Of a DNA stretch of 64,000 nt, positions 2,884 to 57,514 are shown piece after piece. This DNA comes from Escherichia phage p000v. Under the pieces are notes generated by a model. The model was not told the DNA's origin. It saw only the letters and a program-made list of their open reading frames with translations, and made no database searches. How positions within the stretch are numbered: the first letter of the stretch is position 1; each line of letters begins with the position of its first letter. The DNA is taken from the sequence record NC_055781.1; one strand, written 5' to 3'. The position numbers and the translations under genes were made by a program.

Positions 2884-3879
2884 ATGAGCATTACATCTGA
2901 TGCGGTAAAACATGAAATTAACGGTTTATGTGCTTCACAGATTAAAGTGTGGTTTAAAGACCATAACGATCGCAGAGCACTTAATTATGAGCAAATTGCT
3001 ATCCAAGTTCATCAATTACTGACTAGTAAATTTGATTTTCATATGCCGTCTGAAATCTATACTAATCTGCCGCGAGCACTTATTAAAGCGTGTAAAGGTT
3101 ATGGAAAATCAATGGCTGACGGAATCTTCAGCGCGCTGAATAAACTTAACGTTCTGTCGATGATTAACTCTAACAATATCCTGCGTAATCTAGGACGTAC
3201 TGATTTGTTCGGTCGTGAACAGTGTAAAATGCCTTTGAAATGGATTGTTGCTCATCTTAACGAGAACCAAACACGTTTTATGGCCGTAACAGCACGTTTA
3301 CAAATGGGCCTAGATCGTCAGATGAACTTTAAAACTCATCCACGTTATTCAGGTTCAACAGACTTTTATAAATGTGAGCTTCAAAAGGTTGGTGGTAAAA
3401 CTGTCTTAGTAGTTCGTGTAACGTTTGAAGGACGACGTCAAGGATATTTTGACATAATCGGCTCTGGTCTTAAACATTGTGGATTTATCGACGAAGTTGA
3501 TATCAAGCGAGACGGCATTGGATACCGTATTGGGTATGTTTGTACTCTTAAAGAAGAGATTTCAGGACCAGCTCCAGGACTAAAAGACGTTAGATATAAA
3601 GACGAGCTCGTTGAAGAAATAAAAGAAGTTGAATATGATATCAACCAAGAAGATGCTCTTAAAGACCTTATTGATGAACTGAACCAAGATGTTATTCCTG
3701 TTCAGAAATTTGAATCAAAACATGCTGAGCAAATCAAATACTTTGAAGCTTTGATTAACGAACTTAATGTAACTATTCAACAGACTGACGATGAAATCTC
3801 ACGATTAGCAGGCTTAAACGGTAAAAATAAAACAGAACGAGCTAATCTTATTCAAGTAGTAAAACTTCTTAAGGAATGA
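2884..3879 (+). CDS. hypothetical protein with C-terminal coiled-coil-like region
   Basis: ORF track 331 aa; RBS GAGGAAA. Confidence 0.55.
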   Translation: MSITSDAVKHEINGLCASQIKVWFKDHNDRRALNYEQIAIQVHQLLTSKFDFHMPSEIYTNLPRALIKACKGYGKSMADGIFSALNKLNVLSMINSNNILRNLGRTDLFGREQCKMPLKWIVAHLNENQTRFMAVTARLQMGLDRQMNFKTHPRYSGSTDFYKCELQKVGGKTVLVVRVTFEGRRQGYFDIIGSGLKHCGFIDEVDIKRDGIGYRIGYVCTLKEEISGPAPGLKDVRYKDELVEEIKEVEYDINQEDALKDLIDELNQDVIPVQKFESKHAEQIKYFEALINELNVTIQQTDDEISRLAGLNGKNKTERANLIQVVKLLKE

Positions 3880-3925
3880 TGTACAACCAAGGATGGTTGG
3901 AGTATAATGAATCTATCTTAACTAG
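3877..3925 (+). repeat. repeated early-promoter cassette (copy 1 of CAACCAAGGATGGTTGGAGTATAAT...CTATCTTAAC)
   Basis: Near-identical copy at 45146-45190 and a diverged copy at 45701-45730. Confidence 0.6.
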
Positions 3926-3936
3926 AGGAAAATATT

Positions 3937-4887
3937 ATGACACGTTCACATTACATTGAATACTTTGCCGGTCTTATCGCTAACGTTCATGCTCAGCGCG
4001 CTTCTGGTGCACTAGGATTTGATGTTCCACACCGAGATGTAGTAAGTGGTATTCTTCGCGATTTTGGTACATACACAGGCCAAGAAAATCATATCTGTAA
4101 AGATACTCAGAATGCATATTCTCATTCATTAGGGACACTGCTTCAATGGTTCAAACGTTCTCGTTTATTATCTTCTACTGTAGCTCGCGATAACATTAAA
4201 AACTTTATGAAACCGAGCTTTATTAAATCTGTGACATCTAAAACCGATTTGGTTGAATTCACTATTGTTAATGATGTTAAAAAGACTCATTTAGCTGATT
4301 GGTTATCTACCATTCCTGAAACTAAATTTGCTGATAAATTTGCTTGTGAATTCAATAACCAAGTGAATATGCTTTTTAAACATTCTCGTAAATTATTCAC
4401 AGGCGGCGATGATCGTACAAATAAAGTTCATGTTAAAGATTGGGTTACTGCAGTATTCAAACCAACAGGTAATGGTAACGCATCATTGTCAATTGATATT
4501 CAGGTTCCTTATTACTACTCACGTAATCTCGGCACCATGAAAGCCGAAGAAATTAATAAGCGCAACAAAACCATTCGTTCGCTGTCTTATAAACTTCGCA
4601 TGATGTTAAGAATCATGGACGTGGTAGAAATGTATGATGAAACCGAAGATAATGGTTCAATGTTATACAGTTCTCGCATTCAAATTAAGTTGAAGAACCC
4701 TAACGAGTATAAGCCTAAGCCTATTAAAGAGCCTAAAGCAGAAAAAGTTGATAACTTAAGAGAAGAACGCGAATATCTCAAATCTCGTCTGAAAGAAGTC
4801 GAAGCCCAGATTAAAGAACAGACTAAATCGTTAAAAGCTCTGAATGCGAAAGCGGATGGTTTACGAAATGCCATTGAGGTGTTATAA
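3937..4887 (+). CDS. hypothetical protein with C-terminal coiled-coil-like region
   Basis: ORF track 316 aa; RBS GAGGAAAA. Confidence 0.55.
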   Translation: MTRSHYIEYFAGLIANVHAQRASGALGFDVPHRDVVSGILRDFGTYTGQENHICKDTQNAYSHSLGTLLQWFKRSRLLSSTVARDNIKNFMKPSFIKSVTSKTDLVEFTIVNDVKKTHLADWLSTIPETKFADKFACEFNNQVNMLFKHSRKLFTGGDDRTNKVHVKDWVTAVFKPTGNGNASLSIDIQVPYYYSRNLGTMKAEEINKRNKTIRSLSYKLRMMLRIMDVVEMYDETEDNGSMLYSSRIQIKLKNPNEYKPKPIKEPKAEKVDNLREEREYLKSRLKEVEAQIKEQTKSLKALNAKADGLRNAIEVL

Positions 4888-10992: not shown

Positions 10993-11133
10993 TCCCATTT
11001 CCAATATAATCTATTGGAATCTTCACTTCACTATCTCCTTGTGCCCCTCTCAAACCAAAAATATTTTCATAAAACAGTTTACATCCTCAATAGTTGTGTT
11101 AAGATTAAACCATCTACTATAGAGGAAAATAAA

Positions 11134-12496: not shown

Positions 12497-12500
12497 CGCA

Positions 12501-12531
12501 CAAACTCTTGAGAGCAGAGTATAATGCTCTC
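12501..12531 (+). repeat. repeated early-promoter cassette CAAACTCTTGAGAGCAGAGTATAATGCTCTC (copy 1)
   Basis: Identical 31 bp at 57446-57476; -10 TATAAT flanked by inverted repeat GAGAGC/GCTCTC. Confidence 0.6.
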
Positions 12532-12562
12532 GTTGGATAATAAAATAACAGAGGAAAATAAT

Positions 12563-34467: not shown

Positions 34468-34515
34468 GTTTACTTCTCCAGTAGTTATGTTATTATAGAT
34501 CTATCAACTACTGGA
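34456..34515 (+). promoter_or_regulatory. early promoter embedded in palindrome (TCTCCAGTAGTT ... AACTACTGGAGA)
   Basis: GTTTAC then ATGTTATTATAGATCTATC flanked by a 12 bp inverted repeat; related copy at 2255-2287. Confidence 0.45.
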
Positions 34516-34522
34516 GAACAAA

Positions 34523-35775: not shown

Positions 35776-35838
35776 ACTTGTTTACATTATAGATGGACTA
35801 TAGTATAGTAGTCCTATCAAATCAACTAAGGAGTTAAA

Positions 35839-40970: not shown

Positions 40971-41317
40971 AAGAGAAATTTAAAGAGAAATTCTTACTAG
41001 AAATCAAGGAAAAAGACTTTGAGACATGGTATCGAATGGTGAAAGGGTTGACATTGCTTTTTAAAGCATCCTTATTCATGTTAGAACAACCTGGTCCTGA
41101 TGGACCTTTAGTAGGAAAGCTTAAAAAGTAGTTTACATTCCCTCCTCTCGTGTTATGATAGGCTTATCTTTAAATGGAGGTCTATCATGACATGTCAATC
41201 TGAACTTCAAGAACGCGAATACCTAACAAAATCATTCATTTGAAAATGTTGAATTTTTAGTGTACAAACTCTACTGACGATGATACTATACTTTTATCAA
41301 CCACAGGAGAAACCTAA

Positions 41318-44459: not shown

Positions 44460-45137
44460 ATGAGCACTGATGTTATTATAGATTTTGAAACATTCGGCAA
44501 TACGTCAAAAGCTGCTGTTATTGACCTTGCGGTTATTGCATATAATTCAGACCCTGAAGTTGTTGAAACATTTGAAGAACTTGTTCAACGAGGTAAGCGA
44601 ATTAAATTTAATTTAGCTTCTCAAAAAGGGAAGCGAGTTTTCGCTAAATCCACTATGAAATGGTGGAAAGAACAATCGGCTGAAGCACGTAAAAACCTGG
44701 CTCCGTCTGAAGACGATGTCACTACGCTTGAAGGCATTAAAATCTTTTTAGATTATTGTCGAGCTAATAAAGTTGACCAATGGAAATCACAGATGTGGTG
44801 CCGTGGTATGAGCTTTGACTTCCCGATCTTGGTCGATTTGATTCGTGACCTCTATCGTGATGAAGGTGTTCTTGAACCAGATATTGATACCGATAAATTA
44901 GAACCTGTTAAATTCTGGGCTCAACGCGATATTCGTACGGCAATCGAAGCTTACTCGTTGACACGAGGATTAAGTATGTGTCCATTACCGATGGGTACGC
45001 TAAAAGGATTCGTTGCCCATGATAGTATTCATGATTGTGCTAAAGATATTTTGATGTTAAAATATGCTCAGCGTTATGCGCTTGGCCTTGAAGATGTCCC
45101 TGAGAATCCTGACCCGTTAAGTGTAAAACAGCGATAA
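44460..45137 (+). CDS. dexA: exonuclease A (DexA)
   Basis: 225 aa; synteny downstream of dda. Confidence 0.8.
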   Translation: MSTDVIIDFETFGNTSKAAVIDLAVIAYNSDPEVVETFEELVQRGKRIKFNLASQKGKRVFAKSTMKWWKEQSAEARKNLAPSEDDVTTLEGIKIFLDYCRANKVDQWKSQMWCRGMSFDFPILVDLIRDLYRDEGVLEPDIDTDKLEPVKFWAQRDIRTAIEAYSLTRGLSMCPLPMGTLKGFVAHDSIHDCAKDILMLKYAQRYALGLEDVPENPDPLSVKQR

Positions 45138-45145
45138 AACCAGTT

Positions 45146-45190
45146 TACAACCAAGGATGGTTGGAGTATAATCTTTCTATCTTAACCAAA
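45146..45190 (+). repeat. repeated early-promoter cassette (copy 2 of the 3877-3925 element)
   Basis: TACAACCAAGGATGGTTGGAGTATAAT...CTATCTTAACC shared with 3877-3925. Confidence 0.6.
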
Positions 45191-45203: not shown

Positions 45204-45698
45204 ATGAATATCAATACTATGGCTACTTACATCCTGAAAGACGAAAAACAAATCAACTGGTACGGTGCTTCAGTGCGAGCTTATGAAAAGTTTTGTGAAA
45301 TTTTAGGTGCCACTCAAGGTAATAGTTTCACTATTGTTAACTTCATCAAACAAGTTGAAGGCCCTTGGTTATTCTTAGAAATTAAAAATTCATATGGTAC
45401 AATTTCTACTACCGCCCTTCCAAGCACCGACTTTGAACTGTTGATTGAAGAAGCACCTGTTAAAGATGGTCTCCACTTTGATATGGATATCGCTTGTATG
45501 TACGGTACTCTGATTAAGCCTATTGAGCCTACTGATTTGTTGTGTAAATATGTTTCAATTCGACGCCCATTCGTTGGTCCAGTAAATGGATGGGTAACTG
45601 ACCAATGGATTGAAGACGGTGTTGAACTTCTGAACGTTGTTCATGCAGGTGATTTTAGTGTAGTTCCACGTAGTGCTGTGGTTAATATCCTTAATTAA
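45204..45698 (+). CDS. hypothetical protein, paralog family member 1
   Basis: C-terminal motif GWVTDQWIEDGVELLNVVHAGDFSVVP shared with next two genes. Confidence 0.55.
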   Translation: MNINTMATYILKDEKQINWYGASVRAYEKFCEILGATQGNSFTIVNFIKQVEGPWLFLEIKNSYGTISTTALPSTDFELLIEEAPVKDGLHFDMDIACMYGTLIKPIEPTDLLCKYVSIRRPFVGPVNGWVTDQWIEDGVELLNVVHAGDFSVVPRSAVVNILN

Positions 45699-45760
45699 TG
45701 TTGTACATCCAAGGATGGATGGAGTATAGCGAATTCAATTTAAACAAAGAGAGAGAAATT

Positions 45761-46216
45761 ATGATTACTATTGGTGAAATTAAGCGTGTATCGTCTGCAT
45801 CTCGTTCTAAAGCTGCAGGTCGTCTAGTTGAAGTTGTCGGACTTCGTACTAATGGTACTGGTCGTGTTAAAGAAGTTAAAGTTCGAATCATTCCTAGTTC
45901 TGGAAAAAGTGAAACTCAGTACGCTTACGTAAGTCCTAAATTCTTGGAAACTCATGTGAGCGCTCATTTTGCTTCTACTGAACCTAATGTACAGTTCAAA
46001 TGGGCCCTTTGCAAAGGCGTTGAATTCCAGACTGATAAAGAATTTGATTTCATCGACGAATATGGTTATCCAAGCAAAACTGATATCATGTGTGGCTTCA
46101 TTAGTGACCAATGGGTTGAAGATGGTGAAAAGTTATACAATATCGTATTCTTAGGTGACTTCCGAGTTGTTAAAGAATCTGAAATCACTCGCTATGTATC
46201 TCCTCGTAAAGCTTAA
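45761..46216 (+). CDS. hypothetical protein, paralog family member 2
   Basis: GFISDQWVEDGEKLYNIVFLGDFRVV; RBS AGAGAGAGA. Confidence 0.55.
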   Translation: MITIGEIKRVSSASRSKAAGRLVEVVGLRTNGTGRVKEVKVRIIPSSGKSETQYAYVSPKFLETHVSAHFASTEPNVQFKWALCKGVEFQTDKEFDFIDEYGYPSKTDIMCGFISDQWVEDGEKLYNIVFLGDFRVVKESEITRYVSPRKA

Positions 46217-46645: not shown

Positions 46646-46704
46646 AGTTGTTTACTTCTCCTCTGGTTTTGATATTATAACCATATCAACCAGAGGAGAA
46701 TAAT

Positions 46705-47229
46705 ATGTTAGTTTACCGCGTAGAACGTAGTTTTTGTACTCAACGTGAATCATTACCAGGAGTTGCTATCGAAGACGGTAAAGCCGTCAGAATTTGGGAA
46801 ACCTCCTGGAATAAAGAACCTCGTTCGCCATACGGTTGGTCGGGCACCGACAACTCTGAAGAAACATGGGAGTTCCTTGATAAGCATGGAATACTCTCAG
46901 GTAACTTCTACCATCACGGCGACAACTATAATGTACCTAATCGTCCTACAGTAAATGAAGACAAACTCCTTGAACAAAATATCTTAAGATACTATAGAAT
47001 TGAGCACACATTTGAATTGAACGAAGATTGGGCTCAAGGGTTCTATTTTGGATTTGAAAGCGTTGACGCGGTTTATGCATGGTTTGATGACCAGGTGGAT
47101 GTTGAACTCTTGAAAGCTAAAGGATACTACATCGCGGTCTATGAAGCACCTGATTTCATCCTCGGAAGTTGTCAATTAATGTTTAGACGTTCATTGGCAG
47201 AACAAGTTGATTTTATTTTGCTAAAATGA
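46705..47229 (+). CDS. hypothetical protein
   Basis: ORF track 174 aa; RBS GAGGAGAA. Confidence 0.5.
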   Translation: MLVYRVERSFCTQRESLPGVAIEDGKAVRIWETSWNKEPRSPYGWSGTDNSEETWEFLDKHGILSGNFYHHGDNYNVPNRPTVNEDKLLEQNILRYYRIEHTFELNEDWAQGFYFGFESVDAVYAWFDDQVDVELLKAKGYYIAVYEAPDFILGSCQLMFRRSLAEQVDFILLK

Positions 47230-56654: not shown

Positions 56655-56722
56655 TTTCATAAAAGTGTTTACAACTAAGTAGGACTATGATATAGTAGTC
56701 CTATCTAAAAGAGGATAACATC

Positions 56723-56986: not shown

Positions 56987-57237
56987 GCTCTAAAATGTGG
57001 ATCGGAATATGGTTGCTTAGTATCCCAATGATTTGTATAATATTTTCAATTGTGTTGAGGTACTTATGAAAAATGCACTTCTTATTGTACTAAGAACAAT
57101 TTGTGATACGGGTTTTTACATTGCATGTTCGTTCACTGGAACATGGTTGGCTTTAACATATTTTAATGTAATTTAATTGTTTACAACACAGTAGGATTAT
57201 GGTATAGTAGTCCTACTGAAACATGAGGAATACAAAA

Positions 57238-57438: not shown

Positions 57439-57445
57439 AATTGTA

Positions 57446-57476
57446 CAAACTCTTGAGAGCAGAGTATAATGCTCTC
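57446..57476 (+). repeat. repeated early-promoter cassette (copy 2 of the 12501-12531 element)
   Basis: 31 bp identical to 12501-12531. Confidence 0.6.
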
Positions 57477-57514
57477 ATGGATTACAAAAACATTAATCAA
57501 TTGAGGAAATTAGC

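Follow-up and report, generated by a model that had tools for sequence, protein, structure and literature searches.

A repeated, predicted T-even early-promoter cassette in an RB69-like phage, with probable recombination between its copies and a conserved spacer hairpin

The element of about 45 bp that is repeated in Escherichia phage p000v is most probably a T-even early-promoter cassette whose copies exchange sequence by recombination or gene conversion, with one of them (copy A) representing the scar of a gene deletion. We assign this reading a probability of about 0.8. The window analysed here is a stretch of 64,000 nucleotides (NC_055781.1) of Mosigvirus (RB69-like) DNA that shares 96–97% identity with RB69-like genomes, and its + strand is the early-gene direction. 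Read in order, the cassette comprises T(T/G)TACA, a 17-nt spacer (nearly all of it a hairpin of 6 bp with the loop AGGA), GGAG, TATAAT, the initiation region CTATC, and a Shine-Dalgarno sequence with ATG. Host sigma-70 RNA polymerase would use the cassette immediately after infection, and the copies would drive the gene directly downstream (nrdC.3, motB.1, and motB). The promoter and its role in recombination belong to a type already described; what is new, and uncertain, is the spacer hairpin with its CsrA-like loop.

Three copies of the cassette and their promoter elements

The original prediction described a cassette of about 45 bp occurring at least twice together with a diverged third copy, and the repeat was borne out by our analysis. 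The 27-mer TACAACCAAGGATGGTTGGAGTATAAT occurs exactly at positions 3882–3908 and 45146–45172, twice in a window in which no such match is expected by chance. None of 100 dinucleotide-preserving shuffles contained a match, which rules out a chance origin, and no third match was identified in the window when up to three mismatches were allowed. Both occurrences are followed by CTATCTTAAC (3913–3922 and 45177–45186). The looser pattern CCAAGGATGGWTGGAGTATA, for which 0.03 matches are expected, was found at 3887, 45151, and 45709. The last of these corresponds to the third copy, which is therefore real but starts at 45702 and not, as predicted, at 45701. A repeat search of the window recovered the three copies as one family (D4) with 73–76% identity over 66 nt.

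All three copies lie on the + strand. Copy A (3880–3922) is located between an nrdC.6-like ORF (2884–3879, + strand, 331 aa, phrog_2257), whose stop codon adjoins the copy, and the nrdC.3 orthologue (3937–4887, + strand, 316 aa, phrog_1435), which shows 56% identity to T4 NrdC.3. It is composed of the −35 hexamer TGTACA (3880–3885), the hairpin CAACCA-AGGA-TGGTTG (3884–3899), GGAG (3899–3902), and the −10 hexamer TATAAT (3903–3908), with the transcription start predicted at A3915. Copy B (45144–45186) is positioned between the dexA exonuclease gene (44460–45137, + strand) and motB.1 (45204–45698, + strand, 164 aa), the C-terminal region of which matches the MotB family. Its −35 hexamer TTTACA (45144–45149) is followed by the hairpin (45148–45163, loop AGGA at 45154–45157), GGAG (45163–45166), TATAAT (45167–45172), and a predicted start at A45179. 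Copy C (45702–45740, with the cassette proper at 45702–45730) lies between motB.1 and motB (45761–46216, + strand, 151 aa, PF17613), so that motB.1 is flanked by copies B and C. It contains TGTACA (45702–45707), the hairpin CATCCA-AGGA-TGGATG (45706–45721), GGAG (45721–45724), and TATAGC (45725–45730), a −10 hexamer that is degenerate in this phage. Compared with the stems of copies A and B, that of copy C is changed on both sides of one base pair. The palindrome CCAACC/GGTTGG that had been attributed to the cassette could not be retained: CCAACC is absent, and the arms that enclose the AGGA loop are CAACCA and TGGTTG. Each copy is intergenic, on the early-gene strand, and placed between a stop codon and a Shine-Dalgarno sequence with ATG, in agreement with the predicted position just upstream of an ORF. 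The genes following copies B and C are MotB-family paralogues; paralogy was also considered for the genes downstream of copies A and B, and none was found.

The motB.1 gene is a single intact 164-aa ORF in the window and is annotated as separate 132-aa and 29-aa ORFs in the RB69 reference (L001, 4204–4700), which suggests a frameshift or a sequencing difference in RB69. Within motB.1, a weak Rfam match to Y_RNA (45353–45443; 26.6 bits against a gathering score of 38, E = 0.005) is probably due to chance. Across the whole window no Rfam family reached its gathering score, and the matches around copies B and C were weak and at chance level.

The arrangements TGTACA-17-TATAAT in copy A and TTTACA-17-TATAAT in copy B are those of T4-type early sigma-70 promoters, in which a −35 resembling GTTTAC(A) stands 16–18 bp from a −10 of the form TAnnnT; copy B matches the sigma-70 consensus at 11 of 12 positions. 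Copy C (TGTACA-17-TATAGC) conforms weakly. Because its −10 hexamer lacks the conserved final T, copy C may be a weak or dead promoter in this phage; the corresponding hexamer in relatives is TATAAT, TATAGT, or TATAAA. The predicted early promoter thus fits in its hexamers, spacing, position, and agreement with predictions published in 2006, and the predicted TATAAT is found in copies A and B, but in copy C the −10 is crippled. We infer promoter activity in vivo from the consensus match and from these earlier HMM predictions.

Alignment of the 21 intergenic early promoters of the window showed T-A-T-C at +6 to +9 after the −10 in 17–21 of 21, with A at +7 in all 21. Since this motif is family-wide, CTATC, which had been taken as specific to the cassette, is better described as the general initiation region, and the spacer is the special part of the cassette. 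With respect to the extended consensus, the cassette has GAG in place of the TGn found in 16 of the 21 other promoters, and its upstream A-richness is modest.

The RB69 orthologues have already been predicted as early promoters (Nolan et al. 2006, PMC1524935 supplement, additional file 3). These are Pe:8947 (score 27.2) and Pe:8387 (score 6.2), the orthologues of copies B and C, and Pe:51019 and Pe:52042, which correspond to two cassette copies flanking nrdC.5. That study (PMC1524935) gives coordinates only and mentions neither the repeat, the hairpin, nor recombination; its text contains neither “stem-loop” nor “inverted repeat”. A search of the literature and datasets turned up no mapped transcript starts, either in RB69-like phages or at these sites in T4, and the nrdC region of the T4 reference annotation has no promoter features. 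The T4 counterpart upstream of nrdC.3 has TTTAAA and TATAAA, so the hairpin may outlive promoter function. A terminator scan predicted no intrinsic terminator at the cassettes.

Other promoter repeats are present in the window. A second repeated cassette at 12500–12545 and 57445–57490, ACAAACTCTTG-GAGAGC-AGAGTATAAT-GCTCTC, shows 87% identity over 46 nt, and its GAGAGC/GCTCTC inverted repeat brackets the −10; the T4 counterpart of this cassette, which precedes motB, differs in both arms (GGGACC/GGTCCC). In the early promoters at 34469–34516, 46651–46698, 11078–11125, and 41132–41175, the spacer base-pairs with the region around the next gene’s Shine-Dalgarno sequence (as in CTCCAGTAGTT...AACTACTGGAG and CTCCTCTGGTT...AACCAGAGGAG), and such pairing would hide the ribosome site in read-through RNA and leave it exposed in promoter-started RNA. 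Members of the promoter family D2 (35781–35816, 56668–56703, and 57180–57215) carry inverted repeats that surround the −10 (TAGGACTA...TAGTCCTA), and a further hairpin whose loop contains GGA, TTATAG-ATGGA-CTATAG, is formed by the spacer at 35781.

Recombination between copies and comparison with PeSL cassettes

Comparison of flanking genes across related phages showed that genes lying between cassette copies are missing from some relatives, with the junctions located within the cassette. The suggestion that these cassettes act as recombination sites is supported by one junction at nrdC.5 and two losses of motB.1, giving three junctions in total, each resolved to within the cassette. In RB69 and two IMG/VR contigs (L006 and L007), as in most relatives, two tandem cassettes that have a stretch of 27 bp in common flank nrdC.5 (319 aa). 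The window and phage F2 lack nrdC.5 and possess a single cassette, which combines the left flank of copy 1 (...GGAATGATGTACA) with the right flank of copy 2. Because nrdC.5 is present in 133 of 155 Mosigvirus records and absent in only ~20, copy A is most simply interpreted as the scar of an nrdC.5 deletion, the direction of the event being judged from this majority distribution.

The second set of junctions involves copies B and C, which are 558 bp apart with motB.1 between them. In phage RPN187, which lacks motB.1, the junction joins the left flank of B to the stem and right flank of C, placing the crossover at TTTACA. The metagenome contig L377 also lacks motB.1, but here the stem of B is kept and joined to the right flank of C, so the crossover lies downstream of the hairpin. 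By comparison of these junctions, the two losses are independent events with different crossover points in the cassette. Phage ST2 probably carries a deletion of motB.1 as well, as its coverage pattern is the same as that of RPN187.

The distribution of sequence variants is likewise consistent with exchange between copies. For each of the two variants after the −10 (GAAT and CTTT), different phages provide examples at both of the distant loci, and the CAACCA stem is common to three Mosigvirus copies, whereas the orthologous copies in Dhakavirus and T4 differ. Upstream of motB, T4 has a promoter of another class followed by a remnant of cassette C, TGGAGTATAAAATCTT, and the breakpoints in promoter and gene order between T4 and the window both fall at the −35 hexamer GTTTAC. 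Tequatrovirus contigs contain their own 30-bp version of the cassette, twice, so that each genus seems, as a rule, to have its own set of dispersed copies. The likeness of the copies would partly reflect old duplications of a promoter together with its gene, and the copies would also keep exchanging sequence via homologous recombination and gene conversion. Because 27–30 bp are identical, the phage recombination system can cross over between copies; a crossover between tandem copies would delete the intervening gene, or could insert one.

Several further arrangements were observed around these loci. The motB.2 gene (46705–47229), with its own promoter, follows the motB genes in the window and is placed between dexA and motB.1 in T4 (L005). 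In Tequatrovirus L143 and L180 (one 167,948-bp contig), L177, and L194, the sequence GTTTACTTT(G/A)CCACAAGGATGTGGTATAAT has two occurrences, one preceding nrdC.4 and one preceding a 67-aa ORF (phrog_1683) located after the topoisomerase gene. In the metagenome Mosigvirus contig L376 (3663–4148), the motB gene after cassette C encodes a T4-like N-terminal half and shows 77.6% overall identity to MotB of the window, which points to a mosaic boundary near the cassette.

This behaviour is comparable to that of the promoter-early stem-loop (PeSL) cassettes of T4-like phages (Arbiol et al. 2010, PMC2839356; Comeau et al. 2014, PMC4122927), which were described in a set of phages that excludes the RB69-like group. 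Like PeSL, the cassette is a short intergenic unit that combines an early promoter of the sigma-70 type with a stem-loop and a Shine-Dalgarno sequence; it recurs in variable genome regions and fits the PST/T4 PeSL promoter consensus TTTACW-N17-TAYWAT. Recombination between neighbouring PeSL copies deletes or inserts the intervening gene, and the cassette behaves likewise; in PeSL, such recombination also gives rise to mini-circles. Two features used to define PeSL are accordingly present, namely an early promoter with a 3′ Shine-Dalgarno sequence and start codon, and several copies adjoining indels among close relatives (the nrdC.5 and motB.1 losses). The upstream terminator stem-loop is not. 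In PeSL the stem-loop is a terminator just upstream of the promoter, with G-rich stems in RB49 and the AGNA-loop-TCNT form in PST/T4, whereas the sole conserved hairpin of the cassette lies between the −35 and −10 hexamers, has 6 bp and an invariant AGGA loop, and lacks a U tract. The cassette is thus a T4-type early promoter that is PeSL-like in genome shuffling and fails one defining PeSL feature. Neither the PeSL papers nor the RB69 promoter paper mentions a hairpin in the spacer (PMC2839356, PMC4122927, PMC1524935).

Variation and covariation of the spacer hairpin

Hairpins related to those of copies A–C were identified at several other sites. Dhakavirus carries CATCCA-AGGA-TGGATG upstream of nrdC.4 and TATACCA-AGGA-TGGTATA upstream of nrdC.6, and T4 has AGCCA-AGGA-TGGCT upstream of nrdC.3 and GCCACA-AGGA-TGTGGT upstream of nrdC.4; in the IMG/VR contig L096, CTTCCA-AGGA-TGGAGG precedes an nrdC.4-like gene. 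The window itself contains a related hairpin, CCC-AAGGAC-GGG (2830–2841, + strand), within a promoter-like site (2823–2848, + strand) upstream of the nrdC.6-like ORF. This site has the MotA-box-like CGCTTTA 13 nt before TATAAT (2843–2848), is identical in RB69 and F2, and is absent from the RB69 early and middle promoter lists (Nolan et al. 2006). The equivalent place in Dhakavirus is occupied by the TATACCA hairpin given above.

We aligned 13 distinct variants, the T-even copies among them being related by descent. Stem pairing was present in 87.9% of cells against 61.9% in shuffles, and the covariation score was 0.63 against 0.15, a value reached by none of 500 shuffles; sliding the 3′ partner by 1–3 columns reduced the score to 0.04–0.14. 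All four Watson–Crick pair types were seen at one stem position, and at least nine different stem sequences still pair. The columns C7, A8, G10, G11, A12, and G14 were invariant, defining a CAnGGAnG register, although several variants came from pattern scans with the loop fixed and the invariance is therefore partly built in. Changes in the natural loop variants AAGGAC, ATGGAT, and CACGGATG were confined to the two n positions. The loop is invariant across genera in which the neighbouring proteins are just 23–56% identical, and the distance from the hairpin to the −10 varies from 0 to 7 nt.

An IMG/VR scan requiring GTTTAC, AAGGATG, and TATAAT returned six distinct T-even promoter matches with stems of 6–7 bp, whereas the non-T-even matches mostly had stems of one or two pairs and none longer than four. 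The same scan with the loop reversed yielded no stem of more than two pairs and no T-even promoter hairpin. When CCAAGGATGG was sought beside TATAAT, promoter context was found for 17 of 91 distinct matches as opposed to 1 of 69 for the reverse complement, and four lineages of the forward matches are uncultured phages that are not recognisably T4-like and have TTGACA-17-TATAAT. A protein-based search for nrdC.3 in IMG/VR recovered five loci, and a single metagenome scan three. In uncultured phages, hairpins with AGGA or CGGA loops and differing stems lie inside perfect TTGACA-17-TATAAT promoters in L063 (1125–1160 and 6954–6985), L125 (2047), L081 (2204), and L032; BLAST of L063 and L081 against known phages gave no match.

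Predicted folding energies were unremarkable, with z from 0.0 to −2.3 for 55-nt folds of eight cassette variants, and energy alone does not favour the hairpin; the fold of copy B prefers AAGGAUG paired with CUAUCUU. G-T and A-C stem mismatches, counted to separate the sense from the antisense strand, provided few cases. Because the arms vary while the asymmetric loop and the orientation stay fixed, the comparison points to a hairpin that would be read single-stranded, as RNA, and not by a protein dimer on duplex DNA. As the spacer precedes the cassette’s own start site, such RNA would come from read-through, and we infer that the hairpin would act in transcripts extending from the upstream genes. 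No terminator is predicted between the upstream gene and the cassette hairpin, and dexA would supply transcripts reading through copy B.

Candidate functions of the hairpin and meaning of the cassette

The hairpin might be functionless, shared by descent, with its symmetry kept by gene conversion and by palindrome-templated mutation, a process known in T4. Homology among all T-even copies is plausible, sequence exchange between the cassettes is clear, and the folding energies noted above give the structure no special stability. We nevertheless regard this as unlikely, given the preservation of pairing across the many stem sequences with all four pair types at one position, the constancy of the loop next to diverged proteins, and the recurrence of the same loop and stem logic in unrelated phages. 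The inverted repeat would alternatively be a duplex DNA operator at which a dimeric phage or host protein, for example MotB, shuts the promoter off after the early period. The repeat does occupy the stretch separating −35 from −10, so that a protein bound to it would block polymerase, and two of the three copies precede MotB-family genes, but the remaining evidence makes such an operator very improbable. Freely varying arms around an invariant, asymmetric AGGA centre are the opposite of what a dimer-bound palindrome would show; the element is also orientation-specific and its distance to the −10 is variable. Furthermore, T4 MotB is reported to bind DNA without clear sequence specificity (PMC6070864).

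Among RNA-level functions, the spacer hairpin would possibly, but far from certainly, bind host CsrA in read-through RNA in addition to its promoter function. The invariant columns C-A-n-G-G-A-n-G, presented in a hairpin loop, equal the CsrA/Rsm motif, and CsrA sites selected by SELEX have the consensus RUACARGGAUGU with GGA in a hairpin loop (PMC4347634, PMC2896534); the Rsm/CsrA motif has also been given as A/U-CANGGANG-U/A (PMC6849547). The T4 nrdC.4 variant ACAAGGAUGU fits 10 of 12 positions of the published motif, and the 30-nt cassette hairpin RNA is CAACCAAGGAUGGUUGGAGUAUAAU. The covarying stem, the loop changes limited to the n positions, the orientation bias, and the recurrence of the hairpin in unrelated uncultured phages with TTGACA-17-TATAAT promoters all favour CsrA, whose binding could repress the read-through message or make it more stable, or which abundant early RNA could titrate. 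By sequence and structure, the hairpin resembles CsrA/RsmA hairpins such as the CsrB/CsrC repeats, the glgC leader, and ColE7 T1. A second GGA that the CsrA dimer can reach is usually found at the Shine-Dalgarno sequence. In ColE7 an intercistronic hairpin and the downstream Shine-Dalgarno sequence form a pair of CsrA sites; a second GGA is similarly found in the Shine-Dalgarno sequence 36–39 nt downstream in copies A and B, but its absence from copy C (AGAGAGAGA) counts against CsrA, as do the presence of only 4–5 such hairpins in the 64 kb of the window, the loop invariance partly imposed by loop-fixed scans, and the Shine-Dalgarno-like character of AGGA. Unlike known CsrA hairpins, that of the cassette coincides in part with a promoter, and only read-through RNA would contain it. 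A genome-wide CsrA sponge was considered and rejected, with ANGGAN hairpins just mildly enriched (13 against 6.1 ± 2.7), and our literature search found no link between CsrA and T4 promoters. It is doubtful, though conceivable, that the hairpin together with GGAGUAUAAU constitutes a RegB processing site in the same read-through RNA. The phage endoribonuclease RegB, acting together with ribosomal protein S1, would cleave GG^AG immediately ahead of the −10 sequence; the hairpin would then mark the new 3′ end, and the downstream gene would no longer be coupled to upstream transcription. RegB/S1 recognises GGAGRAYARAA when the RNA is single-stranded (PMC1702504, PMC3014915), and the GGAG plus −10 of the cassette, GGAGUAUAAU, is close to it; positions 1–9 of GGAGUAUAAU(G/C) fit if U is allowed at position 5, but U followed by G or C at positions 10–11 does not agree with the A-rich consensus. 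In T4, RegB efficiently cleaves the site GGAGUAUAAAA of the motB leader in vivo and in vitro (PMC1702504); this site aligns with copy C GGAGTATAA, and T4 has GGAGUAUAAAU upstream of nrdC.3. The sequence GGAGUAUAA(A/U) is shared by homology between this leader and the cassette, at the same genomic position as copy C. In T4, however, it lies downstream of another promoter and is transcribed, whereas in the cassette it precedes the predicted start and takes in the −10 hexamer. Moreover, pairing in the stem involves the first G of GGAG, the T4 nrdC.4 and Dhakavirus nrdC.6 hairpin variants lack GGAG, and GGAC loop variants, the worst RegB substrates, are tolerated. We propose only tentatively that the spacer hairpin may be a strand-specific RNA signal independent of promoter strength, acting as a CsrA site and possibly also read by RegB.

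As an early-promoter cassette, the element adds to the T-even phages clear natural cases, from the RB69 group, of short promoter cassettes serving as crossover points that remove whole T4-type genes. By crossovers between such cassettes, accessory genes are gained and lost in the variable regions of these phages, some of which have been isolated or studied for phage therapy. If the hairpin is a CsrA or RegB signal, one 45-bp stretch would serve both as a DNA promoter and as an RNA regulatory site. A CsrA site would be the first connection found between the Csr system of the host and early gene expression in T-even phages. If true, T-even and some unrelated phages would overlay a post-transcriptional insulator or a decoy for a host regulator on their early promoters.
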